NCBI GenBank assembly: GCA_051313645.2
Contig: JBNRSN020000010.1
Span: 94,736,001-94,800,000 of the forward strand
Direction of reading: 5' to 3'
DNA length: 64,000 nucleotides
From: Centroscyllium fabricii
Lineage: Eukaryota
Numbering within the stretch: position 1 is the stretch's first letter; each line of letters starts with the position of its first letter. Below the pieces are notes generated by a model. The model was not told where the DNA came from and did no database searches. It saw only the letters and a list, made by a program, of their open reading frames with translations. Below are positions 10,334 to 48,237 of the stretch, one piece after another. The translations under genes were made by a program, and so were the position numbers.

Positions 10334-10369
10334 CACAAGCTTTCGGAGCCGCAGCTCCTTCGTCAGGTG
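10334..10369 (-). ncRNA. Minimal type I hammerhead ribozyme motif
   Basis: Minus strand reads CAC-CUGACGA-A-GGAGC-UGCG-GCUCC-GAAA-GC-UU-GUG: intact core boxes, 5-bp stem II, palindromic stem III and stem I CAC/GUG. Confidence 0.75.
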
Positions 10370-10389
10370 TAAGTTAGAGATTCATTTCT

Positions 10390-11364
10390 AGTATACATCA
10401 ATGACCTGGATATGGGAGTAGGGGGTATGATCAGCAAATTCGCTGATGATACGAAAATCGGAAGGGTGATAAACAACGATGAGGATAGTAAGGGGCTTCA
10501 GGAGGATATAGATCTAATGGTTAATTGGGCAGAAAAATGGCAAATGGAGTTCAACCCAGAGAAATGCGAGGTCATTCAATTCGGTAGACCAAATGGGGTA
10601 AGGGAATATACCATGAACAACAAAACGTTAAATAGGACCGAGGAACAGAGGGACCTAGGGGTACAGGTGCACAGCTCCCTGAAGGTTGCTGGACACGTTA
10701 ACAAGGTGGTTAAGAAGGCATACGGAATTCTGGCCTTTATTAACCAGGGCATAGTATACAAAAGTAGGGAGGTAATGTTAAACTTGTATAATACACTGGT
10801 GAGACCCCAGCTGGAGTACTGTGTGCAGTTCTGGTCACCGCACTTCAGGAAGGACGTGGTTGCCCTGGAAAGGGTGCAGAGAAGGTTTACCAGGATGATA
10901 CCTGGTCTGGGGGACTTATGCTACGAAGAGAGGCTGGACAGGCTGGGGTTATTTGCCCTAGAGAAGAGAAGGTGGAGGGGTGACATGATTGAGGTCTACA
11001 AGATCATGAGAGGACACGATAGGGTAGATAAAGGGGCATTGTTTCCATTGGTGGGAGAGTCAAGTACCAGGGGACATAGATTCAAGATTAGGGGAGGGAG
11101 GTTTAGGGGGGAGGTAAGGAGAAATTTCTTTACCCAGAGGGTGGTGGAAGTCTGGAACTCCCTGCCTGTAAGGGTGGTGGAAACAGAAACCATCGCAACA
11201 TTTAAAAAATATTTGGACCAGCACATGAAGGACCATAACATACAGGGTTATGGGCCAGGTGCGGGCAAATGGGGTTAGTATAGCGAGGAGTTTCCTGGGC
11301 CGGTGCGGACTGGATGGGCCGAATGGCCCTTATCCGCACTGTAAAATTTCTATGATTCTATGAT
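10390..11364 (+). mobile_element. 5'-truncated CR1 LINE with intact C-terminal ORF
   Basis: ORF 10412..11278 has SKFADDTK, WQMEFNPEKC and [15 protein letters not shown]; 3' tail TTCTATGATTCTATGA. Confidence 0.95.
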
Positions 11365-14300
11365 TTAAACACAGCATATATAGAGGGAGAGAACAATGTA
11401 ATCTTTCCAACTGTCCTACATCACACCTCGGCAGAGACATTAATTGTCCACCCCAGTCCAACACCGGCACCTCCACATCATCAGTAATAAAGTGCTCAGC
11501 GGGATTCTGGCAGGAAATCATGGCTTCAGCCAAGAACTTGACATTTTGCACCTTGTCTGCACAGGTAAAACCATCCTGGAAGAGTGGAAAGTAAATCCCA
11601 GTCTTATCATCTGTCACCTGGTCAAGAAACGGTCGTGAACGTTTTACCCTGGCGATAATTTTACCCTGGCGACGATCATGGGAATATAATCGCGATTGTG
11701 TGTCTTTAATCAGTCTGAAATCAGCGCAATTTCACTCTAATCTTCCTGAAACGTTCGGAACGTGTTTCTGAATGATCGATTTAACAGTGCAGGGCATTTT
11801 AACCCCCCCCCCCCCCCCCACCAAATCATTATTACTATATGTTGGAATAAAATCAGACACCTTGAATGTTACAAAAAGACGGAGGGCAATTTTGATTTGT
11901 TAATAAACAATAACCCTCGACCTTTCGTGTTATTTTGTATTGGAGGTCGAACACTGTATATTTGCAATGGCACATTGCAAAGGCCAGAATAGCACAATGC
12001 AGGTATTGGTTGTTTAAGAATGTCTACTAGTAGCCGCAATAGACAAACTTGGATTTTTGCACTAATGTCACTCCTTTCACATATAGATAACTCATTTGAA
12101 TTAGAATGGTCCAATTAATTTCGCAACATTGTTAACAAAATCCACCCTGTGCATATCGCTCTTTAGATGCAAATGAGACCTTTCTGAAACCGTCAGCGTC
12201 CCCCGAGTCGCTCCCTCCAGATGGATAGTTTCTGTTCTCCGATATACGCCGACTGCTTTCTCTGCTGGTTATTGCCAGTGCTGCTCCTTAATTACTGGAA
12301 ACACTATTTGCAGGTAATCCGCGGAACTGCTATAAATTACACTTGTGAATATATTAACCTGTTTGTTTACAGTCAGTTTATTTGCTTCCTTTACACGATG
12401 GGGGGTACGAGTATTTTTCAGGCATGTTTTTTCTGATCCTACCGTCCAAAGATAGACTTTGTATTCAGGAGATGTACAGTCCTCACGTCCGCATAATCAA
12501 CATAGAAATAACTGTCACTAAATTATATTTTAAAATATTAAAAAACTTTACATACTGCATCTGAAAAAATTATTAAGATCACATAAACATTTTTGATTCA
12601 GTAAACTTCAGCGGTATTCTCCAAGACACGACTATCTGAGTTCTTCGAGAATTGTCTTAGCAGCTAATGTTATCAATGAACACGAGTAGATGTTCTCTCC
12701 AAAATGATCTTCAAACAGAACGGAATATATATTTAGTGTTAACAGGTGTATCACCGAACACACGGTGCACAACTCGAACCTATTTTGGGGCGAGATGTGG
12801 GACACTTGGACCTCTTGGAGAACTCAAAGTCAGGGATTTCCACCGACTTGCACTGGTTAAAACAGGCCCAAGTGTGTGGAGTTGGACGGTAGAGATCTGC
12901 TCTTGGACCAATTCCTTGATCATCAATGTACTTAAACAATGACACTACAGAGGACGATCATGTTAGCAATGTTTTCCCTATACAGTATTTTTTTAAACAA
13001 TGTTACCAAAACACATAGAAAGGGTGCAATCATGATGCCAAATAGAATCGTGTATGCGGATTTAATAAACTGACAAGACTTGGTATTTCACAAAGTGTAC
13101 ACGTGCTTAGGTTCCCGAGGATGAGCTGTGCCGGCTATTTATTGGTTTGAAGTCCACGCTCATGGGATGTACCAGATTTGCTCCTGACACCGTTGGCAAA
13201 GGATGTACAGATTCATTTATGAATTGCTTCGTTGAACAACACGTCTTCACTCGGATGCAGGTTAGGTGACCGTTTAACTGTGGCCCCTTTGGCAGATCTA
13301 AATTGTAGTCATGACAAAACATACGGACTGGAGATAGCGTCCTTCCACAATATTACTTCATTCCAAAATGTATAGTATGTTTTAATGAAAATAACGAGAT
13401 CGCCTCGGCAAAGTGACCTGTTAGCCTTCCTTTACAGAGAGAAAATCGAATCAATCTCTTGGCATTTCTCAAAACCTCCGTGCTTCTGACAAAACTTCAA
13501 ATATTACATCCCAGTTATGCAAAGAAGTAAAACGCTAAAGGTCTCTGATCCACTGTTTCCATCAAGACTTTGAAAAGGGCCCAAGTAAACAGGTTCAGAA
13601 TGGGCGCTTGCTCTGATTGGATTTCAATCTCCCTAACATTTCATCTGAAAATAAACGGCGCACAATTAGGCTAAAATAATTTCAAAGCACTAAGTAAATC
13701 ACATCACAGAAAGAAGGCAATATATAAAAAGTAAAAAGGCAAACTATTCAGCTTTCATTCGACTATTTACACTTTGTCTCCCCGCTATGCGAGATTTTTA
13801 AGCACGTGTTCCCAGCCGCAAGCCCCCAGTTTTCTCTCGTGCTGTAGTTGGGACCCAGCTCACGGGCGGAGCGGCAAACTTCTTGCAGAAGACAGAAAGA
13901 CAGAGAAAGGAGAGAGTCCAGAACTGTTCATTTTGTTCGGGTTAACATCCCTGCTCCAAAAGCTGTCCCGTTGCTAGGCGCTACAGAAAGCCAGTGCACA
14001 AGCTGAAGTTTCCTTTATTGATGACTTGGAGCGAGGTCTGTTGCTGGCTGCAAAGTCCTAAAGAGGGTAACCCGAGGTACGTGATCTTGAATGCAAACTA
14101 TTCTTTCATTCTGCATTTTTACGACCTATCGCGACGAAAGAAGGACGAAGAATGCGTTTATTTACACCATTCCTCAAAGACGTCATACCGCAGAGTAAAT
14201 TCTACCTCAGGCTAATTACATCTGCCACTTTCAGCCCGATTCGTCTCTTTCAGGGCAGGAATGTCGCCCAGCCTAATACCTTATTAAACAGACATTTGTT

Positions 14301-15487
14301 TAGATTTCTAAATGAACAACAGACAGAAAGGTCCGTCGCCCTTTATAAGCCTGTTCACCAGGCATGTGGAGCTCAGATTGCAGCTCACATAACGGTGTAA
14401 TTTAATGAATTGCCTGGGATCAGGGCTGAATTTCCCAGAAATAATTTGTTTTTGGAATGCTACCGTTATTGATTGAGATAAGATATTTGCTGGTCCAAAG
14501 GTTTGCTAGCGGTGTTATCGCTAGACAGGCAGCCAGACCAACTATCTCTTTTACAGTTTACTGATTTACCGGAGTAATGCATTTTACACAATCCTTCCAA
14601 CCTTCACCATGTATTTCTGTCTGATGGGAATGATTCTAAACAAAGTGTTTATTAAATTAATCCCCAGTGTTGACATTTTGTTGAAATGTGTTAAATCTGT
14701 GGGACTTGGTAGCTTTAACGATCAGTTTTAAAGCTGTTAGAAGACCAAATAAATCACATAAGGGTGCAGTTTATCTCAATGTATTTGCATTTATCGCCTT
14801 TCTGAAAATGTGATGCGCGGTGTAAACTGCTAAGGTTAACTTTAATTTGCTAAAGTAAAGTCAGATTTCAGCTAAGGTGCCTTGTTGTTGAGAAAATAAT
14901 TGATCTTTTAAAAAAAGGATCAATAACTTAATTTGAAGAAGAATGTCACCTTAGCAGAGATATTGTAAAAAGCTAGAATCATTAGCTGCAACAAAACACC
15001 CTCCGTTTCCTCACCCCATTTAATCGTTCGGAAAAATGCGTCTCTGGTTTCGTTTTTGCTGCCGGATTAATTTATCGTTTCTCATCCCATTGCTATAGTT
15101 TGTCTTTCCTATTGTTTCCAAGTTAAACCAATTAGTCTCTTTACAAATCCAACAGGGACTATTTTCAATGGCTAAAGTCTGGCCCCGCTGAGTGGCAGCG
15201 AGTTGGGACGTGAGCGGTGCCTGGAGGTAAGGCAGGTGTGCAATAGGAACAGAGTATCCTAACGCCTAGGTGAGAGCCGATTATTCAAATAGAGAAAGAT
15301 CTGGGCAAATCGGGAAAGGAGGCAGGATCTGTGGGCAGTTAAATCACTACGCATGTCCCCAGCGCCACTCAAAGTGTTCGCCTCCCAAGCCTTGCTCAGT
15401 CTGGCAGGCTCCATTCTTTCCATCTTCCTCACTGTACTTCAGCCAGAGTGCATCCGCGCTGGGATTTTATTTTGGGGGCGAGCTTTG

Positions 15488-15517
15488 ATGTTGGTTTATT
15501 GTACTCTGCCTCCATGA
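15488..15517 (+). promoter_or_regulatory. 9-codon upstream ORF whose stop overlaps the FOXA1 start (TGATG)
   Basis: ATG TTG GTT TAT TGT ACT CTG CCT CCA TGA; the A of TGA (15517) is the A of the MLGTVK start codon. Confidence 0.6.
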
Positions 15518-15588
15518 TGTTAGGTACGGTGAAGATGGAAGGACACGAAGCTTCCGAGTGGAGCACTTACTACGGCGATCCGCAGGAG
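15517..15588 (+). CDS. FOXA1: Forkhead box A1, coding exon 1
   Basis: Encodes [24 protein letters not shown] (FOXA1-type N-terminus), followed by the donor GAG|GTGAGT (phase 0). An extra in-frame ATG lies at 15514. Confidence 0.96.
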
Positions 15589-16287
15589 GTGAGTAAAAGT
15601 AACAGTTGTACCTTATTTTGAGGTGAGCGCTTGCGATCATCAACTCACGGATCATATATAGAGCGCTGGATTAGTAAACGTCTTACTTTCAAACCAGGTT
15701 TATAGGCAGTTTGCCGAGGAACTCCTTCCCCCCCCCCCCCCCCCCAAAATTGGACACTGTTCAGTCGAAGCAACTCGAGCGGATGTTATGTGGGGGTTTA
15801 AGGTGCCTCAAATGAAGGGATACTAAGCTATAACGCTAATAGTTAATAAATCGGCATGGCTGTGTTACCGTGTGTCCTCGGTGCGGGAGCCAGCCTCAAA
15901 GTTAGTGACCACGCGGTGGCATCAGAGAGAGGGAGCTCCCGGGCGGCCAGCCCGCGGCCCCCACACCGGCTCCAGGAGCGGCGGGACATCACAGGGAGAA
16001 TCTGCACAAGACATCAACAATATAACCAGTAGCGCTGCTGTATCGATTACTCTTAAACCGGGGAGGAAGCTGCTGCAACTTTGTACTTTGTTTTAAGAGG
16101 CGTGGCTTTCTCACCTAATTTCACCTAAATGAGTCCGAAGGTTTTTCTCTCGCTCTCTCCCCGTGTTGCAAAAAGACAAGTTTCCCGTCAAAATAAGTGG
16201 TGACCAAAGTGTAGCGAGTTGTGAATAAAGATAACAACATTGGCCATTCTGAGCCGTCCAACTGAGATCTTTCTTTTTCTTGTGCAG

Positions 16288-17502
16288 GCCTATTCGGCGG
16301 TGCCAGTGAACAGCATGAACCCAGGACTGGGCAACATGAACAGCATGAACACCTACATGAGCATGAACACCATGGGCTCCGGCGGCAACATGACCTCGGG
16401 CTCCTTCAACATGTCTTACGGGAACGCGGGGATGGGGGCCGGGCTGAGCCCCACCATGGGCGGCATGGGCGGAGGAGGAGGCGGAGGAGCGGGGGCCATG
16501 AACGGCCTGGGCGGCGGGGTGACGGCCATCAGCCCCAACCTGAGCGGCCAGCAGGCATCGCTGAACGCGCTGAGCCCTTACTCGGCCATGAGCCCGGCCC
16601 TCAGCCCCATGGCCTACAACCAGAGCGGCCTGAGCCGGCCCCGGGACAGCAAGAGCTTCCGCCGCAGCTACCCGCACGCCAAGCCGCCCTACTCTTACAT
16701 CTCGCTCATCACCATGTCCATCCAGCAGGCGCCCAGCAAGATGCTGACCCTGAGCGAGATCTACCAGTGGATCATGGAGCTCTTCCCCTACTACCGCCAG
16801 AACCAGCAGCGCTGGCAGAACTCCATCCGCCACTCGCTCTCTTTCAATGACTGCTTCATCAAGGTGGCCCGCTCGCCCGACAAGCCGGGCAAGGGCTCCT
16901 ACTGGACGCTGCACCCCGACTCGGGCAACATGTTCGAGAACGGCTGCTACCTGCGGCGCCAGAAGCGCTTCAAGTGCGAGAAGAAGGTGCCGCTGAAAGG
17001 CGGCCCGGCGGACGGGGGCAGGAAGGAAGCGGGCGCCTCCTCCCCGGCCGCCCTCAGCGACTCCAACTCGGCCACCAGCCCGGACACGGCGCCGCCTCCT
17101 CCTGACCTCAAGCGGCCGCTGAGCTCGGCCTCGGCCTCCGGGGGCCCGCTCAGCCCGCACCCTCACCCGCACCCACACCCGCACCCCGGGCCGCCCCTGG
17201 GCCACGTGTCGGCGGCCGACTCCCAGCAGCAGCAGCAGGTCCACCAGCTGAAGGGCGACCCGCACTACTCCTTCAATCACCCCTTCTCAATCAACAACCT
17301 CATGTCGTCCGAGCAGCAGCATCACAAGATGGACTTGAAGGCTTACGAGCAGGCCATGCACTACTCCAACTACGGGGCCAGCATGGCCAGCGGCCTGGCC
17401 CTCGGCTCAATGGGCAAGAGCGGCATGGAGCCCTCGGTCCTGGCCAGCGAAGCGTCCTATTACCAAGGTGTGTATTCCAGACCTGTTCTCAACACTTCTT
17501 AG
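16288..17502 (+). CDS. FOXA1: Forkhead box A1, coding exon 2 (spliced protein 428 aa)
   Basis: Acceptor TTTCTTTTTCTTGTGCAG|GCC. Forkhead domain [14 protein letters not shown]...[15 protein letters not shown]...[15 protein letters not shown]; region [14 protein letters not shown]; region [22 protein letters not shown]1 synteny supports FOXA1 over FOXA2. Confidence 0.97.
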
Positions 17503-18317
17503 TCTTGCACCAAAAAAAACAAAAGCTAAAAACCGTCATAGAATAATAACAAACACTTTTCCCTCTTCGGGATTGCACCTTGCGTGCAGAGACTGTTACT
17601 TTCAACATTTATATGTATAAAAACTGTGGAAGTGTAAAGTAGCTGCAAGATTTGGCGATGGATCACGACTTGTACATTTCGCGGAGAATATATCGCAAAC
17701 ATCTGCAGAATGTATTTAAATTTTTTGAAACGTGTTGTAAAATTTTAGAATTGGTTGTGTTATACTGTATTTCTGCGCGTCCACTCACCATTCCCAGTCG
17801 CTGCCCACAAGTTGTGGCAACACACAGATACTGATCCCAGACTTGTCTTTTAACTAATGAAAAGATGAGCGGGAATGGTGGGCGGTGGTGGGGGGGGGGG
17901 AGGGGGGTAAATAAAATGAGCTGCTTGAAGAAAATAATTGTATGTTCATTTTATGAAACTGCTATTTCAAAGCTCTGTTGGATGCTGTGCAGTTTTAGTG
18001 AAGCAGGAAAGGCCGTTTCTCTTGACTGGTTTTGCATGTTCATTTCAACTCAGTTTGCGAATACATTTTTGAAAGCGGGTTTGTTGTAAAAAATGAACCA
18101 AATGTTACCTGCATCAGGAACCTCGAAAAGTTACTCCTGTTTCCGTTCCACAATGCCGTTTAACTCTTATTTCCACCCAATGCACTTTCCCCCGTTTTTA
18201 GCTGTCCAGACATGTTGGTGTTAGCATATAGCCAGGCGGGTTCTTGCGGCTTTTCTCAATGTGCCTAATTTATTGCATGGTCTACTCTAGGTCCTTTCTA
18301 GTTTTAAGTTGTTTAAA

Positions 18318-18421
18318 AATAAATATTGCAAATTACAAATGGAATTTATGGAGTTGTTAATTTTGTATTTGTAATTCTATGAAAATGAATAAAATTATTT
18401 TGATTTGATGAGAAAAATAAA
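18318..18421 (+). terminator. Candidate FOXA1 polyadenylation signals
   Basis: AATAAA at 18318, 18388 and 18416, followed by the GU/U-rich TTGTGTTTTTT at about 18445-18455. Confidence 0.55.
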
Positions 18422-18829
18422 AAAAAGGTTAATTCGCACCTACCTTGTGTTTTTTATTAATCAGATCACTCACCAATAAGTTGGTTTATTTTTTTTAAAG
18501 ATTCAAAATTATTTCTTGTTTATGCGTGCAATTCAGTATTGCAGTAAAAGTGAGTGATTTATAATAATTAAAACAGCTTTTGAGCTTAGTACCTTCACAA
18601 GATAATATCGCTGTCAAATCAATGATTGTAACTACAATGTGCTGATCTTTGCAAAAAAAACAGAAAAACGTCAGCGGGAATTTAAATTGTTGTTCACTGG
18701 CTGCATGTATAAAATAACTCTTCCTGCTCCAGCTATATAAAAACTGTCGTTTCAAATATGAATGGTCAGATTCACTGTGAGCATTTTCAATACTGCAGTA
18801 ATACATTCCCAGATCCGAAAACAGTATGT

Positions 18830-18861
18830 GGAGGTGCCGGTGTTGGACTGGGGTGGACACT
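18830..18861 (-). mobile_element. Solo Penelope-like tail micro-insertion
   Basis: GGAGGTGCCGGTGTTGGACTGGGGTGGACA lies between direct repeats CGAAAACAGTATGT (18816-18829 and 18862-18875). Confidence 0.75.
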
Positions 18862-18918
18862 CGAAAACAGTATGTTAGCGTCAAACATCCGTGTCTGGGT
18901 TTGCTCAACACCTTCAGC

Positions 18919-19238
18919 CATAGAATCATAGAATCCCTACAGTGCAGATAGAGGCCATTTCGGCCCATCGAGCCTGCACCAACACATATCCCACCCTATC
19001 CCCGTAACCCCCCACATATTCAATCCCCCTAACACTAAGGGTCAATTTATCATGGCCAATCAACCTGACCCGCACATCTTTGGGCTGTGGGAGGAAACCG
19101 GAGCACCCGGAGGAAACCCACGCAGACACGGGGAGAATGTGCAAACTCCACACAGATAGTCACCCGAGGCCGGATTTGAACCCGGGTCTCCAGTGCTGTG
19201 AGGCAACAGTGCTAATCACTGGGCCACGGTGCCGCCCT
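18919..19238 (-). mobile_element. V-SINE (HE1-like) with CR1-type 3' tail
   Basis: tRNA-like head GGGCGGCACCGTGGCCCAGTG...GGGTTCAAATCC; V-domain TGTGTGGAGTTTGCACATTCTCCCCGTGTCTGCGTGGGTTTCCTCCGGGTGCTCCGGTTTCCTCCCAC; tail matches the CR1 3' end at about 11315-11363. Confidence 0.9.
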
Positions 19239-21399
19239 GATACAACACTTTAATCGCTTTGCTTCATGTTTTTAATTTATAATTAATAACAGAACTACCA
19301 GAATATGTATCTAAGAAACCAAATCTTACAAAATGTTTAAAAAGTCAAGATAAGCAAGGGATAATAATGTCTGCACATTCTCTATCGTTGTCTTTTAATT
19401 AAACAACGCAGGTCTAGGTTGGTGTCACAAAAATCAGAAAGTGCACAATTAAAGCCAAGCATTCTGGACGATTTTGAGTAACACGACCATTGAGAAACCA
19501 GCTGCGATTCAGTTCACGATATGTATTTTTAAATAGGAAACTGGTGCCACAGGCGCTACCCCATATATGAACCGCCAGTGCCAAAATGACGACACTTCGC
19601 AAAACAAAGGAATGACTGGAATAAATATTGTTACAAAATTACATTTAATATTGTCAGTTATTAAAATTATCTGTGGGTTTATTTCATTTTCATACATGAA
19701 TGTTACTTCGTTGATCCTTATTTCAGAAGCAGCGCGTCACAGATCCCTGTGCGTTTTATCTCGACCGAAAAGAGCACCGAGTTTGTTGATAGAGAAACAG
19801 GTTCAGAAATAAAACCAACCCGCGAGCATTATCACCCATCATTTATAAAGTCTGCGCAGAACAGATAGCTACACCAGGAAAAAAGATTTGGCCGCCTGTT
19901 TCCTTTGTCACGCTGAGAACAAGTATAAAGTATTGTCTAATACAAATGCTGCAATGTGTGACAGAATTGCATTTCTTTGTATCTGGATACAAAACACTTT
20001 GTAATTTCGACCCACACAAGAGTGGATTTTGGACATGAATAGCTTTCGCTTTGATCACTGATCACTGGCGGGACACACACATTGTCAGTGTAACCGTGAA
20101 ATTCTTTTAATTATCATGTAATTGCCCCCTGATGAGTGAAAAAATGTAGTGCGAAATTAAGAGGAGGAGGTAGCCAATTCTCTGAATATCCATGGATGGG
20201 TGGCTGCACCAGCGGTGTGAGCATTACTAATTCACAATTTATTTTCTGTAAACAGTATCCTTCCCAACAAGTGCAGGTGAATCACGATACTCAGATCATT
20301 AATTTGAAAATGCATTTTAGGATTCCCATGGAATATACTTAAACCAGGCTCTATATAAGCTACAGGGAACTGGCCAAATTGGAATTTGTTCGCTTCACAA
20401 GATCCATTCAGCAATTTATTTACAGAAAAGCTAAAAAAAAATAATTAAATATACTGTCACGATGGGTAAAATTGGAAACCATGCTATTTATTGTATTGTA
20501 TATTTTTTTGTCCCAATAATTAAGTTACGGTTGGATCCGGATTTCAATAGAAAGTGTTCGGGTACATTAAATTCTCCCCTTGTATCGCGTGTCTGGATTC
20601 CATTGTACAACCACGGTCAGATGTGTGCACGATTTATATAGCATACTTACAAGCCTCCACGTTTTAATTTGACACGGTATCGTTATTAAATGACAGAGGG
20701 TTCCTACCTATTCGCTGCCTGGTGTTTCATATACTTTCAAATTGTATAAAATCTGTTTTATTCCATTTACTTTTTAAAATAACATTTGTAAAACATGGTG
20801 TTTGAAGGTGCTATGCGTTTTTAATTTTTCAAGATAGACTTTTTTTTAGGGTTAGCACATCAGCCGGATGTTAGAAGTCAGTAACTAAAGCATTCATTTC
20901 AGAATTCGAGCATTGCTATTTCCCCTCCGTGTGTTAGAACATGAGGTGTGGCTGGTGTTGCAGTACAGGTGCTCAGTGACAATGCCTGGTTAAAGTCTGG
21001 GTTCATTGTACCTACAACATTGATTTCATATCTATTTTCTGCTTTTATAATAATTTTAGAATTTCGGAAGAACTCTATCAGAAGTAACCGCTGCAAATAT
21101 AGCAGGTGCTTACCATTTATGACCAGAAAATTGTTTTTATTTATATTTGATTCTGTTACCATTCGAACACCCCCTCAAAATAAGTTCCTAAGAACTTCCG
21201 TTGCCCGTTCTTTGATTGCTCTCGATGGTAAATATGTAAAAAGGATCAATCGCGCTTGGCCGTCGAATGTAAAATTGAACTGTACAGGTGGTGGTTGTTT
21301 TCTTTGGTGCTAAAGTCAACAGAACAAACTAACGTTCAGGCTAAGTATGGAGAACACTTCAGATCTCAACCCCCCTCCCCCACTTCTACCAGCAAGAAT

Positions 21400-21589
21400 T
21401 GTAAAAAGTCACACACCAGGTTATAGTCCAACAGTTTTATTTGAAATCACAAGCTTTCGGAGCGCTGCTCCTTCCTCAGGTGAAGTCCGAAAGCTTGTGA
21501 TTTCTAATAAACCTGTTGGACTATAACCTGGTGTTTGTGTGACTTCTTACAATTGTCCACCCCAGTCCAACACCGGCACCTCCACATCA
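21400..21589. mobile_element. Compact Penelope-like element: inverted pLTR pair plus tail, with 10-bp TSD
   Basis: Segment ~21397-21462 is an inverted repeat of ~21486-21554; tail runs to 21589; CAGCAAGAAT is duplicated at 21390-21399 and 21590-21599. Confidence 0.8.
21447..21483 (-). ncRNA. Minimal type I hammerhead ribozyme motif
   Basis: Minus strand reads UCAC-CUGAGGA-A-GGAGC-AGC-GCUCC-GAAA-GC-UU-GUGA. Confidence 0.75.
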
Positions 21590-24500
21590 CAGCAAGAATA
21601 GTGACAGCTTACATTACATTACACCACGGGAAATGGTGCATTTACTGGTTTACAGTAAAATTGGCGATCATATAAAGGTGCTCAGAAAGGGGGAATGAAT
21701 CAGAGTGCTACACGATTCTCAAACGTGACATTGAAATGACATAGTGCAGTGTTATTTGTTTATTTCATCAAAACATTTATCTAACTTTTTTCACATTTAC
21801 ATATCCATTATCCTAATGGGAGGAATATATGCGTGTTTCGGTTTGTTATCCAGTTCCCATCCTCAGCTTTCCCCTGCATAGACTGACCTATTGCATATTT
21901 CCTAATGCACCTTCAGACAACTTTCAATTCTGCAAATGCCGGTTAAAGGGGTTGACGAGAACACCATACACGCTTTAACTCCAAAAGCGAACAATACTGC
22001 AAAAGTACTGACTTCAAAGTAGTTAAGGTTAGACATACAAGATCTTTTTATGTGATTTTAATATACTCAATGCATTTTCTCCACGATTATTTTTTGAGAG
22101 TTGTGTGGTTACAGAAAATGTTAAGACAACTGCTGACTAAAGGCGCCTCCTGCTTTGAATTTAGGACTTTGCTCTGTTTCACAAGCTCCTCATTCCCTTA
22201 TTCCAATCTGATTCTGTTCTCTTTGTGATTTCTAATCCATCAGTGTGGGGCCAAGAGCTTTTCAAGTTAATAATTTTCTTTATGAGACTAGCCAGATTCA
22301 GAAGTCTGCATTATTCCTTTCTGAATACATTGTCGCGTTACATTTGAAGCTTATTCTGTGCTGTGCAGTTAATATGGTATGGGGTTAATAGAAAGGCAAT
22401 AACTTTTAATTTACTCGAAAATCTATTCCTCCTGCATTAATGCACACAGTTGGAAATACGATTAAACGTCCAGCGAAGAACGAGATATTGCAAAGCGAGA
22501 AGTGGCTTGCAAGGTGCTCTCTATTTAATATTAGTTGTCAATTGATTTGAATACAGGGTTGTTCAATATAATTGCAGCCTTTATTAAGTGGTCTAGGTAC
22601 TTTTTTTAAAGGAGGGAAAATACTTTTGGTTTTAAAGCTGTTGACTTCAAAAAAAGACGCTGCTTGTGTGTGATAAAGTGATAATAAGCACATTTAAAAT
22701 AGTGTGGAGTTGACGGGCGCGACAAGAGGTGCCAGTGACGTGGATGATGTATCTGAACATTGTGCCGCCATGACTTTGTGCAAACTACTTCCTCTCAATC
22801 GATAGATTTTCTGATTATTTTACAACTTTAATACAAAAATCGATGTATAATCGCTCAACAGCGACAGGACGAACATGGTGGTTGCATAAACTATCATTCG
22901 TAAAGATCAGCAAAATAACAGGATGTGTGTCAGGCAAGGTGAGAAAACGAATCCTCGTGTTGCTCTCAACGCCGAAGGATGACAGAGCACGAAGTTTAAC
23001 TCAGCTAAATAGGGCACTCTCATCGCCATCGTCACCTTTACCATCACATCAATGATTAGTACCTTTGGGCTGGAGTTAAAATGTGTTAAGTAATACTGTA
23101 ACTCAAAATGGATGTAGTCAATAATATTTAAAACATGCAGAACCTTTCCAATGACAACATACATGAATATAAAATTATGACTGAGTATCTTCAGCCGGGA
23201 TTTATCTAGACCTTAAGAACCAAATATTGAGATTAATGTAAATTGTAACTCTCATTCCTTTAAATCATATTTTAACGAAAGGAAGGGCCTGTGTCTGTCC
23301 ACTTTCGTTCTGCGGTGTCCCTGGAATGTCAGCACTCCGATCGGTCTTGTCAATGATAACAACAGTGTCACTGGATGAAAACGACTTTCAGATTTAAAAG
23401 TTTGGGTGTGATTAAAACAGTTCGAATGGAATGAAACATCAGCTATTTATGAGAAAAGTAAAATAAAGCCGAGTCTGCATTTGCAGCAGGCAAAGGAATC
23501 AATCGCAGTTCACTTTAGAGATACAATGTCGGTTAATGGAGACTCAGCCCTGTATTTTTTCCAAGATAAATCTTCCAGTTTTAAGGACGGTACAAAAATA
23601 ATCAAGGCAGCTGTGAGCGAGGACACTTGGTCTTCTCCTAACATTTAGCATTTTGTTCCATCCCACCAGCTTCTTGGGTCCAGTCTTGCTCTTGTTTCCC
23701 GCTTTGTGACTTCTAATCCAGCAGACTGGGGCCAAGAGCTTTTCAATGCGAACTTTGGACAGGACAAACAACGTCTCCTGACCTCTGACAGCAACTGGAT
23801 TTAACAATCACTACCTGGGGAAAGAATGTGCCTCTCTGTAAGATGAAAATATACTCAACTGGAAGCCGAAACCAGTATTAATTAAAAGAAACATGCCCAT
23901 TTTTCACGTAATTCGTCTTGTTTCAGGAGGAGCCCGCCGTTTACTTTTAACTGCTATCATTTTCTCACGTTTCCTTGCAAATTTACGTATAAGCGAAAAT
24001 CTAAATGTCTGCAGATGGTTAAACACAGCCGCGAACAATTTTCCCACCAGGATTTGTGCAGTTAGTTATGATTTCACTTCTCACTTCTTTGTACGGATAA
24101 CCTGGGAATCGTGTTTGCTGTTTAGTGTGTTTTGCGCTCCTGAATTGTTAACGGTGTGACTTTCAACCTGGAAATAATTTACGACCAGAAGACCAAAACA
24201 GAGAAATATATGCACAAACAAACTGCTAGCCTCAAAAAGATCTGAGGATTAGCACCGCTTACTTACCATGTGTAATACTTGACTTTTGGCAGTGGCAGTT
24301 TTTAAACTGTATACAGTGCTGCAATGGTTCAGTGTATCTGGTGAGCAATCGCCGCGCCAAATACAGCATCGACACCTTGTGATTTCACACTGCCCTCTTT
24401 ATCATTACTGATCATACTCAATGACGGTGTTGCAAACAAATAATAAACGGTATTATTATGGTTCCCGCTCTCCTATTATTATTCGTATTCAGATTCGCTA

Positions 24501-31100: not shown

Positions 31101-31167
31101 TCAGGTCACCGTCCTGATGTTCCCTGTTCCAACCTTCTTCCTCAGGACGTCCACCAGCCGTTCCAAC
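31101..31167 (-). CDS. MIPOL1: Mirror-image polydactyly 1, last coding exon
   Basis: Acceptor CTTTTCTTCCTGCAG|G; reads (K)LERLVDVLRKKVGTGNIRTVT*, matching the recalled MIPOL1 C-terminus. Phase 2 joins the AA ending the 46149-46379 exon. Confidence 0.92.
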
Positions 31168-32217
31168 CTGCAGGAAGAAAAGAGGAACGAGTATTAGGAA
31201 TTCATAGGCTGAAAGAGGCAGTGTTTGCACTGTAGAAAGGCTTGCCTGGTGGTCATTAGAAAACAAAGATGTACTGTGCAACACAGACACTGGTGAGGAT
31301 GCCGACTCATCGTTAGATTTTGTTTTCGATCTTTACCAGTCTCTGAACAGATGAACTAGTAAGCTCCCTTGTTAGAATGGCCATGGTACATTTTGTACAG
31401 TATGATTTTTTTTTGTATTTGATTCAATAAGTATTTTGTAAAGCTTACCAATCCTCAAAAGCATATACATAAATAAAACAGTTGGCAAACTTAGTGCAAA
31501 ATTTTAGATTTCAATGTTCAGCTGCTGGACCCTCAATTATTTCTTTAAAAATAATTTCAGATTTTATTACAAAGCATTACAATTTTTAGGCAACAGCCAC
31601 TGTGAGACAGGCTCTTTCGTATGGTCGTAGCAAAGCAAATGTCAGTATCTAAGTCATATATCCAGACCAAAGCTTCTGGTGTAACAGCGTGGATATCTTG
31701 TAGGCTGCCTGCAAATTTCCTGAGGGCAGTGTTCGATGATATGCTCCAGGGTCTGATTAGGAGCTCCACACTCACATGATGGGGATGCTTTAATCTTCCA
31801 TCTATGGAGAATTGGCAGCAGCTACCATGACCAGTTCTGAGGCGGTTGACTGTTGTCCACTGTTTGCAAGGAAGGTTTGATCCTTCAGGTTGTACTGTGG
31901 AGTCCTCTATAAGGTATCCATTCCATATTTCACAGTTCTTCCAATCATTTCACCATTGGTCATCAAGGCTGAGGGGAGATCGCTGAAGGGTTTCGGTGAT
32001 GGTCCAAAATGGCTTTCTAGATTGTAGGTTGTTTAAGTTGGTCTGGATTGGCATGTCTTTGCTGGTGTAGCGGTTGTATTCTCTGGAGATTACATATTTG
32101 CAGAGTGGGTGTGGTGGTGCGATGTTTGCAAGCACGGGCAGCCAAGGTGTTGGTGTCAATAAAAGCGTACTGGTGATAATTTTCCTGGTAGAATTCAGCT
32201 TGACATCAACGGATTTG

Positions 32218-40329: not shown

Positions 40330-41350
40330 ACTTGTCCTTCTAGGTGGTAGAGGTCGTGGGTTTGGGAGGTGCTGTTGAAGGAGCTTTGGCGAGTTGCTCC
40401 AGTGCATCTTGTAGATGGTACACATTGCAGCCACGGTACGCCGGTGGTAGAGGGAGTGAATTTTTAAGGTGGTGAATGGGGTGCCAATCAAGCGGACTGC
40501 TTTGTCCTGGTTGATGTCGAGCTTCTTGAGTGCTGTTGGAGGTGCACTCATCCAGGCAAGCGGAGAGCATTCTATCACACTCCCTGCTTTTCTGGTCAAT
40601 GGTGGCCCCCAGGATGTTGATGGTGGAGGATTCGGTGATGGTAATGACGTTGAATGTCAAGGGGAGTTGGTTAGACTCTCACTTGTTGGAAATAATCATT
40701 GCCTGGCACTTTTGAATCCGAATGTTACCTGCCACTTATCAGCCCAAGCCTGAATGTTGTTCAGGTCTTGTTGCATGCAGGCATGGACTGCTTCATTATC
40801 TGAGGAGTTGTGAATGGCGCTGAACACTGTGCAGTCATCAGCGAACATCCCCATTTCTGACCTTATGTTGGAGGGAAGGTCATTGATGAAGCAGCTGAAG
40901 ATGGTTGTGCCTCGGACACTGCCCTGAGGAACTCCTGCAGCGATGTCCTGGGGCTGTGATGAGTGACCTTCAACCACCACAACCATGTTCCTTTGTGCTA
41001 GGTATGACTCCAGCCAGTTGTGCGTTTTCCTCCCGATTGCCATTGACTTCAGATTTACTAGGGCTCTTGATGCCACACTTGGTCAAATGCTGCTTTGATG
41101 TCAAAGGCAGTCACTCTCACCTCACCTCTGGAATTCAGCTCCTTTGTCCATGTTTGGACCAAGGCTGTAATGAGGTCTGGAGCTGAGAGGTCTTGGCAGA
41201 ACCCAAACTGGGCATCAGTGAGCAGACTATTGGTGATTAAGTGCCGCTTGCTAAGCACTGTCGATGACACTTTCCATCACTTTGCTGATGATTGAGAGTA
41301 GACTGATGGGGTGATAATTGGCTGGGTTGGATTTGTCTTGCTTTTTGTGA
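40330..41350 (-). mobile_element. Decayed CR1/L2-clade LINE RT region (family distinct from the main CR1s)
   Basis: YHPISLLSIISKVME, FDIKAAFDQVWH, GVPQGS, FINDLP and MFADDCTV occur across frameshifted ORFs. Confidence 0.85.
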
Positions 41351-42594
41351 CAACTCTTGTAGATGCATGCGCCTTGCTTCAGGCACTCCTCAGCTACTGT
41401 TAGTACAACTTTTCGAGGGGTCACTATCCATGGCAGCAAAAGGTAAGCCTCGTCACCACAAGACATCCATTTTTACTTCTATCTTGAACATCTTCCTTGC
41501 AGAGCTCAGGGAGAGCTGGACATTTAGCAAATAGTACACCTTTCTATTAAGAAAGATGACAGGGTCAATTGTAGGAGCACACAATGTCATGTGCATGCCA
41601 TCTACTGCATCCTGCACTTGGGTAAGTTAGTAATATGATTAACTAGATGGCCTTATAGTGGCAAACCAGTTGAATGCTACAGCTTCTAAAAATGTTAGTA
41701 ACCTGACCAATACATGACCAAAAGGTATCCAAGGTGACAGATCCCCCATCGATGCTTGATTAAAACTTACGCAATCGTCACTTTCACAGCAATACACAAA
41801 GCTGTCCGGGTAGATGACCTTGGCCACAGGTCTTCACGTAGTAGCTGGCACAGCTCCCCCATTGCATCGTTGGTGAAATGCACTCTTCTCACGCACCGTC
41901 ACCGGATCTGCGAAGCCGGTAATTTCCTTACAGAAGGCAATACATTGTAGGGTGCCTCCTCTTCATATGCTGCCTCACTCTCCTTCCATCCATGCTGTAT
42001 TGCTCCTCCTGCTCCATTAAAATTGAAAATAAGGGAATGCCCATTGGGAAACCCATATCTGGTACTCAAAACCACTTACTGTGGATGGGGATAAACACAG
42101 CCCAGTGGCCTCACAGGCCCTCAGATGTAACCTTTATCGAGGGGAAAGTTAAAAGTGACACTTAAAAAGTCCTTCTGGAACTCCAGCAATCACTCCTCAA
42201 AGTTTCTTCAGGCTGCAGGCTCAGAGTCCAGAGTAAAGCACTTCCACCCTGTCTCAACTGATGCTGGCAACAGATACACCTCTTAACACATCGTTAATTT
42301 CCCTTGGTGCAGTGGGAGATCAAGTCTTGGGGATTTGGCACTCCAGCACTGTTCCTCCACGTTAGCATTTACTTTAATTACCACCCAGCAGCATCACTGC
42401 ACTACTTTGAGAAGGTCCCAGACTGTGATGGAAATTATAGTGCTTCCACGGAAATGGGTCTCATCCCAGAATAAACTTCCAAAATTGCCAGAAACCTCCT
42501 TTCAAGCCCCAAAGTTGCCATAAATTACGAATTAGATTTGGGCCGCCATGTAAGATTAGTATAGAAGTGACTTTTCCTCCCGCAAATGGATGTA

Positions 42595-43058
42595 CAGGTT
42601 GAGCACCGGTAATTCGTTAACCGGAAAGCCGGCAGCTTCAGTCGTCCAGCATAAATTGCCCCGACTGCCCTGCGCATGCGCAAAATGGTCGCCGCGCTTG
42701 ATGCTTCGGCGAAAGATCTGCACATGCGCAGATCATTCACAATGGTCTCCGCAGGCCGGATCTCCCCGAGCCGATCGCGGGCCGGGTCTTCCCGAGTCTC
42801 TCTGAGCCGATCGCGGGCCGGGTCTTCCCGAGTCTCACCGAAGCCGATCGCGGGCCGGGTCTCTCCGAGCCGATCGCGGGCCAGGCCTCCCCGAACGATA
42901 AACGCATGCGCAGACCACTCAAAATGGCCGCCGGCCTTTCGCGGTGATCATTTTGAATGGTCTGCGCATGCGCTCGCCGAAGCTTCAATCGTTCGGGATT
43001 TTCACTTTCCTGGCACGGGCCTGGTCCCACCTGTGCCAGATTAACAGTGCTCAACCTG
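42595..43058. mobile_element. pogo/Tigger-like MITE (copy A), TA target duplication
   Basis: TA|CAGGTTGAGCACCGGTAATTCG ... CAGATTAACAGTGCTCAACCTG|TA, TIR match 18/22; GC-rich interior. Confidence 0.88.
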
Positions 43059-44460
43059 TATATTTGGATTTCCACAAGGCATTCGATAAGGTGCCACATA
43101 AAAAGCTATCAAACAAGGTGAGGGCTCATGGGGTTGGGGGTAATATAGTACCATGGATAGAGGATTGATTAACAGACAGAAAACAGAGTAGGGATAAACT
43201 GGTCATTGTCTGGTTGGCAGGCTGTAACTATTGGGGTGCCGCAAGGATCAGTGCTTGGGCCTCGGCTATTTACAATGTATATTAACGACTTAGATGAAGG
43301 GACACTTCCGCTCCTGGGCCTGTCCAGTGTCGAAATGCGCAGGGCCCATATATCCCAGGGGTGAATGAAGTTCGCAAGCGTCCCTGAGATCACGTGGGCC
43401 AGGCCAGCCAATAGGAGAAGGGAATCTCCCTTCATACTTTTGACAGATAAACCTGTCAAATATATGAATGGAGATCACCCCAAAAACACAGTAAAACATT
43501 AAATACATTAAAAAAAAACTGTCACATTTTTAAAATGAATTAATATTACATTAAATTAAATATTGTAAACAAAAATGTAATTTTTTCAAAAAAATAATTA
43601 AACTTTTTACAGGGCTAAAAATACACTGACATCATCTGACACCGGCTTTCCCTCAATTGGCTAGCAAGTCTGCAGGGCGGGGCTTAACAAGGCCAATCAG
43701 GGGAAAATAGCATCTGTGCGTCGGACGTCACTGGGGGTGCGACAAGAACCCAGAAGGCAGCAGTCCCGCTCCCAACTCGTCTCCGAGTAAAATCCAGCCC
43801 AGAAAGTTAGCATGCAGAATACAGCAAACAATTAGGAAGGCAAATAGCATGTTGGCCTTTATTGCAAGAGGGTTGGAGTACCAGAGTAAAGAAGTCATAC
43901 TACAATTGCACAGGGCTTTGGTGAGACCGCACCTGGAGTACAGTTTTAGTCGCCTTATCTGAGGAATGACATACTTGCCTTGGAGGCGGTGCAACAAAGG
44001 TTCACTAGATTGATCCCTGGGATGAGAAGGCTGTCCTATGATGAGAGATTGTGTAGAATGGGCCTATACTCTCTGTAGTTTAGAAGAATGAGAGGTGATC
44101 TCATTGAAACATACAAGATTCTGAAGGGGATTGACAGGGTAGATGCCGAGAGGTTGTTTCCCCCGGCTGGAGTGTCTAGAACGTGGGAGCATTGTCTCAG
44201 TTTAAGGGGTAGGCCATTTAAGATGGAGATGAGGAGGAATTTCTTTACTCAGAGGGTCGTGAATCTTTGGAATTCTCTGCCCCAGATGGCTGTGAATGCT
44301 GAGTCATTGAGTATAGTCAAGGCTGAGATAAATAGGTTTTTTGACTCTCGGGGAATCAAGGGATATGGAGACCGGGCAGGAAAGTGGAGCCATGATCTTA
44401 TTGGATGGCGGAGCAGGCTCAAGGGGCTGTATGACCTACTTCTGCTCCTAATTCTTATGC
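43059..44460 (+). mobile_element. CR1 LINE fragment interrupted at 43304-43800 by a Harbinger-like MITE remnant
   Basis: YLDFHKAFDKVPH and GVPQGSVLGP-type sequence to 43303; resumes at 43801 (AGAAAGTTAGCATGCAG); MRGDLIETYK ORF. The insert ends in GTAAAATCCAGCCC. Confidence 0.88.
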
Positions 44461-44556
44461 TCTCTGAACAATAAGAAAATGACAATGAACATTTCCTGAT
44501 TTGTTTAATCTAAACAAAACAAAATAAAAATAAAACAAATATTTCCAAGAAATATA

Positions 44557-45281
44557 GGCCCATATATTCCGATCCCTATGGGTGTGTATGCGCTGTGTAC
44601 TCACTCGTAGGGACATTGGAAATGCTGGTTTCAGGCATGCACAGCACATGTGCTGAAAACCGGCATTTCTGATTTGTCAAGGATGATCTTGACAGATCCT
44701 CCTGCTGCCCGAGAGAATGGCCGCTGCGAGCGAATAGTTCTGTTCTTTGGAGACCCTCCGCCCGCAGAAAACCCTTACAATTCTTACGCCTGGTAAAAGC
44801 CTGATAAGAGTTGAAAAAAAGTTTAAAAAAAGTTTCTCTCATTTATTTATCATTTAAAAATACTTTTGTAAAAAGTTTATTTTTTGACACTTAAAAAACT
44901 TTAATTATTTTTTTCAAAAAATAAAATATTTGTTTAATACTTAATTTATTGTAATTTCAAGTCATTTGAAAAATGTGATTAAAAATGTATTTAAAGTTTT
45001 ACTATGTTTTTGAGATAATCTCCATTGATATATTTGACAGGTCTTCCTGTCAAGTGTTGAAGGGAAATTCCCTTCTGTGATTGGCTTTCCATGGCCTACG
45101 TGATCCCAGGGATGCTGCAAACTACATGTGCCCCTGGGATACGTGGGCCCTGCGCATTTGGAGTTTGGAGAGACCTAGGAGCAGAAGCATGTGCATCCCG
45201 GGGGTCCTCGGGTAAGGGCGTAGATTTTTCCAGATCACAGGCCTCCGCCCGCGGGAGGCCTGCGATCGGAAAATACAGGCC
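44557..45281. mobile_element. PIF/Harbinger-type MITE with 3-bp TSD (ATA)
   Basis: ATA|GGCCCATATATTCCGATC ... GATCGGAAAATACAGGCC|ATA; AT-rich centre and GC-rich arms. Confidence 0.82.
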
Positions 45282-46148
45282 ATAGTCAGAAGTGAATTAC
45301 AAGAAACCATACTTTATTATATTTCTCAGAAATGTATATATTTTATATATGATGAATTAATTTGAAGTCTGCTGTTAGGTAGATAGATGTGGCAGCCAAT
45401 TTAACACATCAAGATCCACAAACAGCAATGAGATGGATGCCTAATTAATTTGGGTTTGGGGGTATTGGTTTAGATAAATGTTGGCGAGTAACCTGGAACT
45501 CCTTCCCCTTTACATGGTGCCATCCTAACATCCACTTAAACTGCTGGGACATGCAGACAGGACCTCAGTTTAACATCACATCCAGGGGTTAACATATTAA
45601 AAGAACTTGGATCTTTATAGTGCCTTTCACTTCCTCAGCTTTGTTAAATTTAATTGTACTTGAATTATTTATGTGTGCCAATAATAACCGTAAAAATAAA
45701 TATAAGTCATTGCTTAAAAGGCATTGTGCATATAAATTATGGATAGGTGAAGGGTTCTTTTGCTTTGACGGTGTACAACTGAACACAGTAGCCAGTTAAG
45801 TAACATAATTAGGTCATGAGACATAGACACAGAATGTCCCAAAGCACTTTACAGCCATTGACTACCTGACAATGCAGAAATCTCTCAGTGGCATATTGCA
45901 GTATCAGCCTAGATTATGTTCTCAAATCCAGATATAGGGCTTGAATGCATAACTTCTGATTCAGAGGCAAGCATGCTACCAACTCAGCCAAGCTATATAC
46001 TGGAAATACAGGTCCTTTAGAAAACATGTGCTATTAAAAAAGTTGAATTTATGTATTTTTTTTACCTTGTGTTGAACACAATGAAAAGCAGAGCAGAAGA
46101 ACAAAAGAAAGCATACTTTCACTTTTTAAAGCTCGTCAAAGCACTCAC

Positions 46149-46379
46149 TTCTGAACTTTTTCAATCAGTTCATTTTTGGCTTCCAAGGCTTGCTGCAGTT
46201 TAATCTCCATGTTTGCCCGCTCTGCCACAGCCAATTGTAACTGGTTTGCAAGATCTTCATTTTGGTGGTGTGTGGCTGACATAATGCCCTCGCTGGCACG
46301 TAAAGCACTGTCATAAGTGCCTAGAGCAAAGTTGAACTGGTCTGTGAGAAGAGCCTCTTGTGATAACGACTTGTGTAAG
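46149..46379 (-). CDS. MIPOL1: MIPOL1 penultimate coding exon (231 nt, phase 2/2)
   Basis: Acceptor TGTTCTTTCAG|C and donor AA|GTGAGT. Encodes the coiled-coil LHKSLSQEALLTDQFNFALGTYDSAL...LANQLQLAVAERANMEIKLQQALEAKNELIEKVQK, matching recalled MIPOL1. Confidence 0.93.
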
Positions 46380-47713
46380 CTGAAAGAACATGAACAAATG
46401 TGACAAGATAATTTTTCTTCATTAAATGTAATTGTACTTAAATTATTTATATATACCAATAATTTTTACAACAAAGTCAGTGCTTGTGTATACAAATTAT
46501 GGGCAAGTAAAGTGTCTTTTAGCTTTGACTGTACAACTGAACATGAGACATATCATGTCATGCCATGAGACATAGCAAGATGGTAGCAGTTGACTTTGGT
46601 TTAGTTGTGCCGAGGAACTGCATTACTTCCTATGCCATTTGTCCATTTTGTTAACAAGTGGAACTAATGAAAAATAAAAGAGAAATTAAAATATTTTCTT
46701 TTCTTTGAGAAATTCCTCTTGCATTGGATACTAAAGCTTTCCTTACTTGGCTACCAATCAAAAACTGAATGTAATGCCATATGCCACCTCAGTTAGTCTA
46801 TTCATTACTTAGGTTGTGTTCTACCACTCCCTTGAAATGATTAGTGGGACTGCACTGCATGTTGAGTTGGAGACTGTGCTTCCCAAATCCGTTATACTCC
46901 ACTTCTGCACAATATACATAGTCATAGTCAAACCAACTGGCCACAAGTATGGGTGGAGATCACTTATGCCAGATCTCTACTTGTAATTTGACTGCATTCC
47001 TGATGAACCTTTGGACTAGCGCTTCATTTTGATGAGGAAAGATAATGTCATTGAGATGTTCTGGCAATTTCTCATCATTCATGCAGGATGTGAACATAAT
47101 CATAAATCTGAACCTGGAAAATGAGCATCCAGGATTGCTAGGGAGCTGCTGGATAAGGAAGTAATGATTTAAAGGGACAGTTAGGAAGACACACTAGCCT
47201 AAATTTTCCACTTGGCCATAATGCCAATGTAAGTGTGGTGGGACAGGAGTTCCGGCTGCTACAAGAATGTGCCCTGACCCTAGCTGATTAAATCATTTTG
47301 ACTGTCTCCCTGGTTTCCACTGAGGAATGGAAAAGGCTGGAGAATGGCTGCAGCAGACTGTAAGCATTTGCTGTGGTGCAGAATGACTGGTGGCCTCGGG
47401 GTTAGCGCAAGTGCTGATTTTTAAACATTTTATTTAAAGCATCTTAGATTATGTAATCAATCTCCCTCTCTGACTGTATAGGGTTTCCAACCTCAATTTT
47501 TAAAACCCTCTGCATTGTCCATAGTAATGTTGGACACTAGGAATACACTGCTAAGGTGCAATGTCACAATGAAGTATGTCTACCATTTCCATCTCATTAT
47601 AATGTGCCTACCCAAACTGGGTGGATGTATTTTATCCCCAATGTCACTTCCGACAGAAAATGCCAGAAGTGGCAAGGATGAGCGGCTCCCAAAGAACTCT
47701 GTCATATTCAAAG

Positions 47714-48237
47714 TGCAAAAAGTCACACAACACCAGGTTTAAAGTCCAACGTTTTATTTTAAATCACAAGCTTTCGGAGCTTTTGCCCCTTCGTCAGGTG
47801 AAAGAGAAACTAAAGTCAAAGATCACACACATGGGGGAGGGGAGTTACTCTGGGAAGATGGTCTAACTTGATCAGTATATTTTGATTGTTTTTGAAGAGT
47901 AATATGTTGTGAGTTTGTTTTTGAAGAATATATTGAGTTTTTCTGTCAACTATTTAAAAACTTTTTTGTTTACTTAATCAGCGAGAAGGCTTTGTGCCAC
48001 TGGTTCTGGCACTGCCATATTTTGCTTAGATCCTGAAAATCTGTATATTGGGTTTCTCTATGTGAATCCCATTAGATTTATGTTTTCTGCATGAAGTAGA
48101 GGAGCAATGGAGTGGTGCCAGGCAGTTGAAATTGAACCAAAGGAGGCCTGGGACCACCTGCTGGTACATATAAAGACATATAAAGTGATTTCAAATAAAA
48201 CTGCTGGACTATAACCTGGTGTTGTGTGACTTCTTGC
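47714..48237. mobile_element. Penelope-like inverted ends (47714-47803 and 48185-48237)
   Basis: AAGTCACACAACACCAGGTT...TTTCGGAGC...CTTCGTCAGGTG, with its reverse complement GTGATTTCAAATAAAAC...CCTGGTGTTGTGTGACTT downstream. Confidence 0.65.
47764..47801 (-). ncRNA. Minimal type I hammerhead ribozyme motif
   Basis: Minus strand reads UCAC-CUGACGA-A-GGGGC-AAAA-GCUCC-GAAA-GC-UU-GUGA (one G-U pair in stem II). Confidence 0.72.

Follow-up and report, generated by a model that had tools for sequence, protein, structure and literature searches.

Introduction

Minimal hammerhead ribozymes (min-HHRs) in the pseudo-LTRs (pLTRs) of metazoan Penelope-like elements (PLEs) were described by Cervera and De la Pena in 2014, who also reported inverted pairs and solitary copies (PMC4209133). 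In that work monomers were inactive and dimers were of low activity; dimer cleavage is also stated in a review citing Luense et al. 2017 (PMC6765202). A CX2-5CxxC linker marks the Neptune and Nematis elements and, in the sections of Craig et al. 2021 that treat it, is given as absent from Penelope and Poseidon (PMC8557442). The same paper calls the in vivo role of PLE hammerheads unclear. In their study of PAc, a Poseidon element of Anolis, Frangieh et al. 2024 tied a layout of tail and inverted copy to two internal starts of reverse transcription, and reported that cleavage needed protein and that cleavage was dispensable for insertion in vitro (PMC11167929). A preprint on non-LTR retrozymes reports that one of nine retrozyme dimers was active, and its survey includes one chondrichthyan (bioRxiv 10.64898/2026.07.22.740005). 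None of the papers listed by our literature search deals with shark PLE hammerheads, and the supplements of PMC4209133 and of the 2026 preprint may include some.

Here we analyze a 64,000-nucleotide stretch of shark DNA (the window), in which a sequence-only reading had noted three intact minimal hammerhead motifs. We find that these motifs are 3' pLTR remnants of a young Penelope-like retrotransposon family.

Results

Three hammerhead motifs share sequence beyond the core

All three motifs lie on the minus strand: site 1 at 10334-10369 (loop II UGCG; predicted cut between 10337 and 10336), site 2 at 21447-21483 (loop II AGC; predicted cut between 21451 and 21450), and site 3 at 47764-47801 (loop II AAAA, with a G-U wobble; predicted cut between 47768 and 47767). 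Their minus-strand reads are CAC, CUGANGA, A, GGRGC, loop, GCUCC, GAAA, GC, UU, and GUG, just as the sequence-only reading had described. We read this order as a type I hammerhead, with a helix I of 3-4 bp (four pairs at sites 2 and 3, three at site 1), CUGANGA, an extra A, a 5-bp helix II, and GAAA; an AGCU palindrome replaces helix III, and U17 stands at the predicted cut. The core (CUGANGA and GAAA), UH at the cut, and helices I and II are present at all three sites.

Stems I and II are predicted at each motif in isolation, with z of -1.97, -0.75, and -1.34 for sites 1, 2, and 3, so that folding energy alone is not significant. A loose core pattern has 10 matches in the window versus 3.2 expected. 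The three sites share 85-91% identity over 93-96 nt, including about 60 nt downstream of the motif, and across the 7.21-Gb genome a tight motif pattern finds 105,701 exact matches, or one per 68 kb, and its reversed control none. Because of this common downstream sequence and this genome-wide excess, we do not attribute the three motifs to chance. The Rfam hammerhead check that had been suggested was run on the whole window and gave 0 matches at E<=1, a miss that would be expected for a hammerhead motif without helix III.

The three loop II sequences noted earlier are all there, but UGCG probably does not stand for a progenitor loop of its own. It occurs in none of 79 sampled copies (described below) and was also unseen in the 100 tight-pattern matches listed, where UGC does occur. 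This points to a private one-base insertion at site 1 as the likely source of UGCG, rather than a third progenitor loop.

Full-length elements carry the motif in both pLTRs

At one of the first ten loci, the end of a frame encoding reverse transcriptase (RT) and GIY-YIG lies 390 nt upstream of the motif. We used the 370 residues of that frame end as the query in a search for full-length elements, in which 111 of 104,774 candidates were scored; besides the query's own locus, the matches had 96-98% protein identity over the 370 residues. Mean pairwise nucleotide identity was 98.9% in 30 of the 111 scored copies. A 22-nt anchor in the downstream tail, which has 174,837 matches genome-wide, lies less than 800 nt past the stop codon in 28 of 30 ORF-selected copies, each time with a motif before it. 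The pLTR varies in length and makeup: the copies L015-L044 have 415-564 nt between stop and tail anchor and differ in the pLTR middle through internal duplications and deletions, with a frame that is 98.9% identical, and in L049 the 5' pLTR contains five copies of a 58-nt repeat in tandem.

Twelve long copies were retrieved, with frames of 876-937 codons between stops in eleven and 686 in one; in most of them the first Met directly follows the pLTR end. Seven of the twelve have the motif in both pLTRs, 3,134-3,342 nt apart and identical in six of the seven, and in the other five one or both motifs are absent through truncation or change. The full element is a pLTR, a single frame that encodes about 890 residues counted from the first Met, and a second pLTR, with RT, a CX4CX2C linker, and GIY-YIG in that order within the frame; the 5' pLTR has one hammerhead, about 90 nt ahead of the start codon, and the second is found about 3.2 kb further on. 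The Penelope-like origin of the motifs, their minimal type I form, and the palindromic helix III, all proposed before, are in this way supported directly by full-length elements.

The RT domain scores as RVT_1 at E 7e-10, and the protein has the motifs KPADKG and RYIDD, the CX4CX2C linker (residue 778), and a GIY-YIG-like motif at 815. Pfam found no family in the C-terminal 370 residues, and its GIY-YIG model did not score on the element protein; PF01541 is annotated on several protein relatives. These relatives have 81-91% identity in three named sharks and 43-46% in turtles. The linker is Neptune-type, a type common to Nematis.

For the structure and variation of copies, we took 100 tail-anchored places as listed (of 174,837), picked irrespective of the motif; 79 span the motif and were scored, and the 21 truncated ones were left out of the scoring. 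The 3' ends fall at two points, about 60 and about 95 nt past the predicted cut, and the stretch of about 35 nt between them is what we call the tail. The longer end, with tail, is found in 47 of the 100 copies, and an inverted piece less than 400 nt upstream in 46.

Three further observations concern copies of the family. The downstream end (window 21516-21575, plus strand; L008:1550-1610) is predicted to form a long stem-loop closed by the tail, which may serve as a priming or protein-binding element. A pyrimidine-rich tract lies 10-20 nt upstream of the motif in the pLTR (for example, window 47802-47820), with CAG before it in several lineages; by analogy with Penelope of D. virilis, this could be a splice acceptor region. 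One fold-back copy, L171 (window-equivalent 85313-85521), has many A/T to G/C changes on both arms and an identity of 75-80%, versus 1-5% divergence in most copies.

Variation among copies partly supports selection on the progenitors

Core positions are constant in 74-79 of the 79 scored copies. The extra A between 9 and 10.1 is present in all 79, G10.1 in 77, C11.1 in 74, and the palindrome's G and C in 78 each. The commonest core changes, C11.1 to U (4 of 79) and G12 to A (5 of 79), are two faces of one CpG and hence expected from decay after insertion. Fully intact copies number 43 of 79 and those with an intact core 57 of 79. Since the family is young and so many sampled copies are intact, finding three intact motifs in one window is unremarkable, and is weak evidence taken alone.

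Differences among the 79 copies are found at N7 (C40/G19/U18/A2), at position 10.3 opposite a fixed U (A46/G32), at the middle base of helix I opposite U (A70/G7), and in loop II, for which there are 13 sequences. The optimum for a hammerhead at position 17 is C or A; U17 is fixed here (79/79). The 12 bases upstream of the motif are highly variable, and the 24 nt downstream of the anchor are constant in 72-76 of 76 copies at most positions, equal to the core. The comparison of core with neighboring positions, which had been put forward as a check, thus comes out as anticipated within the motif and on its upstream side, but fails on its downstream side. Two-sided compensatory changes do not recur in the sample, and one was seen among the 100 tight-pattern matches listed.

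The CpG at N7-G8 allows a sharper comparison, as decay alone predicts equal numbers of UG and CA. Genome-wide there are 18,685 matches with N7=U versus 2,551 with G8A, which suggests that lineages multiplied when they carried the tolerated change but not when they carried the core change. We also found a core variant with an extra U, CUUGANGA, with 5,637 exact genome matches in three loop II backgrounds; it occurs in both pLTRs of L050 (2883 and 6225, plus strand) and of L055 (2946 and 6224). It may be a tolerated variant, with U3 opposite G8 and a spare C, or a sign that cutting is optional. The suggestion that the progenitors were under selection for self-cleavage therefore stands in part. 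The CpG asymmetry and the lineage variation at N7, loop II, and wobble-compatible stem positions argue for selection, but the tail is as conserved as the core, the altered-core CUUGANGA lineage amplified, and cleavage is a possible rather than proven target of that selection.

A weak signal at the predicted cut site

A separate copy at 48185 begins exactly past the predicted cut, which prompted a test for a cut-site footprint. Copies truncated close to the cut number 6,265, and in the first 30 of them a start at +1 occurs once. Genome-wide starts number 803 at +1, 658 at -1, 347 at -3, and 521 at +3 (four of about fifteen positions counted), and +1 starts are 1.2-2.3 times those at neighboring positions. 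With flanks estimated to pass the filter about 40% of the time, +1 starts would make up about 1% of copies. Because the listings mix in short deletions and fold-back joints, the +1 excess is equivocal as a record of cleavage and a weak hint at best.

The 5' ends of sampled copies form a loose cluster near the motif. Of the 100 sampled copies, 79 run through the cut site, which indicates that the template is usually RNA that is uncut (or was re-ligated). In 31 of the 100 the 5' end falls from -60 to -21, for the most part at a fold-back joint. Over the whole sample, 5' ends range widely, from beyond -350 to +6, continuous with full elements, with neither a fixed 5' start nor a single peak at the motif.

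These data bear on an alternative that we hold to be improbable but deserving of attention, namely that the window copies are Penelope stubs whose motif was kept for a reason other than cutting: the whole 125-nt end would be conserved as a module for priming, protein binding, and the 5' UTR, in which the hammerhead fold is a vestige or a structural component. Such a module would account for a tail conserved like the core, for the amplified CUUGANGA lineage, for a U17 that never gave way to the optimal C or A, and for the lack of a sharp cut-site footprint; ribozyme mutants were also without effect on insertion in the PAc study (PMC11167929), and Naiad elements thrive without the motif. It accounts less well for the fact that lineages vary at just those positions that a hammerhead leaves free (N7, loop II, and wobble pairs) and that G8A did not amplify, or for the Anolis motif, which cut in the presence of protein and showed C3/G8 rescue (PMC11167929).

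Insertions of the family within the window

Site 1 is part of an insertion of about 1.2 kb at 10285-11481, flanked by a 13-bp target-site duplication (10272-10284 and 11482-11494). Its pLTR 3' part (minus strand) lies in two pieces, at about 11440-11361 and about 10387-10285, on either side of a LINE fragment on the plus strand (about 10388-11360), whose open frame of 301 codons spans 10373-11278, and a 38-nt inverted tail lies at 11444-11481 (plus strand). Since the LINE fragment interrupts the pLTR, it is younger than the site 1 insertion. A 7-bp repeat around this LINE was considered as its duplication and rejected, because it overlaps the LINE's own tail repeat. Site 2 belongs to a 190-bp fold-back at 21400-21589, with a 10-bp target-site duplication (21390-21399 and 21590-21599). 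The minus arm contains the motif and finishes at the short 3' end, and the inverted plus arm (21486-21589) is without CUGANGA and terminates in the tail. Site 3 lies in a 134-bp 5'-truncated pLTR end at 47711-47844 (minus strand), 89.9% identical to the pLTR of one full-length element; no target-site duplication of 7 bp or more was found around it.

The window contains further members of the family that the sequence-only reading had missed. In addition to the inverted pieces at 21486-21589 and 11444-11481, these are a separate 54-bp copy at 48185-48238 (plus strand), which starts at the first base past the predicted cut and has a 12-bp duplication, and two tail-only copies on the minus strand, at 48476-48513 (11-bp duplication) and 18826-18859 (14-bp duplication). 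Clear duplications of 10-14 bp in ordinary sequence thus accompany five of six window insertions.

Stubs that are short, numerous, and hammerhead-bearing could suggest an independent non-autonomous element, a non-LTR retrozyme or SINE-like unit spreading via small circular RNAs, all the more as retrozymes derive from pLTRs. We regard this as very unlikely, because we found no head-to-tail tandem units at the three motif sites, the 5' ends are scattered and continuous with full elements, and the layout of fold-back and tail is that of the autonomous element.

We note several other repeats in the window. A segment at 57931-58625 was considered as part of the element described here and dropped, as the full-length frame has no match there; it has 697 nt at 81% identity to sequence beside copy L003 and is a different repeat. 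Remnants of an LTR retrotransposon at 52000-56400 and 1-1475 have repeats of 93-98 nt that are 4.2 kb apart and 95-96% identical; their RT and integrase frames, on the minus strand, are broken. A 33-nt tandem repeat of about six to eight units lies at 7016-7279.

Site 3 and the neighboring genes

MIPOL1 lies on the minus strand, with its penultimate coding exon at 46149-46379 (acceptor side 46379), its last coding exon at 31104-31169, and an upstream exon at window-equivalent 123,068-122,967. The MIPOL1 exon has 82-91% identity to named shark proteins, which identifies the host as a shark. With the exon read from 46379 to 46149, site 3 is indeed sense to MIPOL1 and 1.4 kb before the acceptor, as had been stated. 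The intron that hosts it spans 76.6 kb. It also contains three other motif copies in sense orientation, of which one is degenerate, one has a mismatch in helix II, and one closes a 2-kb copy that retains remnants of the frame; two pieces are antisense. In a related organism, one contig spans both places and has neither site 3 nor the 48185 copy; it differs from the window intron at 62 of about 1,800 bases. Orthologous conservation of site 3 was not seen in this relative, and given the empty matching sites on this one contig, site 3 and the 48185 copy are most simply read as recent insertions.

Equilibrium predictions of folding in context differ from those for isolated motifs. In 60 nt of native flank, site 3 has a helix II probability of 0.07, and its motif is thus predicted to misfold in the intron. 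The corresponding probability for site 2 is 0.05-0.12, with a fold-back of -104 kcal/mol; site 1 keeps helix II, and its helix I has a probability of 0.06.

A forkhead open frame at 16225-17502 (plus strand), with an exon 1 candidate at 15517 (gene 15517-17502), is what we take from its sequence and the MIPOL1 neighborhood to be exon 2 of FOXA1. The forkhead gene and MIPOL1 converge, with 13.6 kb between their stop codons. Site 2 falls between these stop codons, and site 1, antisense to the forkhead gene, is about 5 kb from its exon 1 candidate, on the upstream side. Nothing ties the three copies to MIPOL1 or to the forkhead gene, and the relevance for MIPOL1 that had been implied is not borne out: site 3 is most simply a recent lineage-specific insertion, is one of several copies in the intron, and is predicted to misfold. 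The idea that the host has co-opted site 3, which would cut MIPOL1 pre-mRNA and tune splicing of the 46379 exon as amniote intronic hammerheads might, can draw on its sense position 1.4 kb upstream of the acceptor, its intact core, and precedent in RECK and other genes, but is hardly credible in view of the empty matching site in a relative (62 differences over about 1,800 intron bases), the further family pieces in both orientations (three of them sense motifs) in the 76.6-kb intron, the missing helix III and predicted misfolding, and a placement expected at one match per 68 kb.

Discussion

We consider the three window copies to be 5'-truncated stubs of a young PLE whose progenitors were likely selected for slow, partner-dependent self-cutting, the copies themselves being probably inert at these loci; we give this reading a probability of about 0.72. 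Reverse transcription would start inside the RNA at the two end points and usually stop early, leaving one-motif stubs as most insertions. Insertions keep an unbroken motif on both sides of the cut site, so the RNA being copied would mostly be uncut. In a multimeric transcript, two such motifs are predicted to pair via the AGCU palindrome, perhaps aided by the element's protein, and to cut at UU/GUG, which would set free a unit-length RNA bearing a 5'-OH. An extra A14-U17 pair, made possible by a U at position 17, would likely slow the cut, and a lone stub without a close partner would rarely cut. Counting against this reading, the helix III duplex is predicted at only -4.3 kcal/mol.

A more speculative extension, on which we would not rely, treats the >100,000 copies as a natural mutational scan in which N7, loop II, wobble pairs, and CUUGANGA were explored and G8A was not. 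The +1 excess would then reflect occasional germline cleavage, and the slowness conferred by U17 would spare host transcripts that bear intronic copies. Whatever its merits, the family lends itself well to tests of what PLE hammerheads do in vivo, being young and combining >100,000 genomic copies, some of them full-length and intact, with two variants of the motif.

The arrangement that we describe has been known since 2014, and the shark family is another case of it, to which the window copies add little. It resembles the min-HHRs of PMC4209133 in being type I with a short helix I and an unpaired base between 9 and 10.1, in its G10.1-C11.1 pair, in the palindromic 15.2-16.2 without loop III, and in having a motif in each pLTR, about 3 kb apart, with most copies solitary or in inverted pairs. 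It differs in number, with at least 105,701 exact matches for one shark family, whereas about 4,000 and 9,000 are called remarkable in the part of that paper we draw on, which names no sharks, and also in its 5-bp helix II and its CUUGANGA sub-lineage.

Two other groups of hammerheads are less close. Like the non-LTR retrozymes (bioRxiv 10.64898/2026.07.22.740005), the shark family has a type I hammerhead from pLTRs, but those elements are defined by tandem units in the text cited, and the three window sites are solitary or inverted. Site 3 shares its sense intronic position with amniote intronic hammerheads such as that of RECK (PMC6155905); these are described there as conserved across classes, whereas site 3 is absent in a close relative and has no helix III.

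The closest parallels are among PLEs. As in the EN+ PLEs Neptune and Nematis (PMC8557442), the shark element has a C-terminal GIY-YIG, a DKG motif, and a CX2-5CxxC linker, together with partial tandem pLTRs, 5' truncation, an inverted copy, and a 30-40 bp tail; the microsatellite targets reported for EN+ PLEs contrast with the ordinary sequence, with 10-14 bp duplications at 5/6 insertions, targeted by the shark family. With PAc (PMC11167929) it shares an AC-rich tail delimited by two 3' end points, a hammerhead near the start codon, and copies that keep the motif whole. Unlike the shark element, Poseidon is without a linker Zn finger, as far as the cited accounts describe it, and in PAc the motif includes the start codon and the frame includes the tail, whereas in the shark family the start codon comes after the motif and after both end points.
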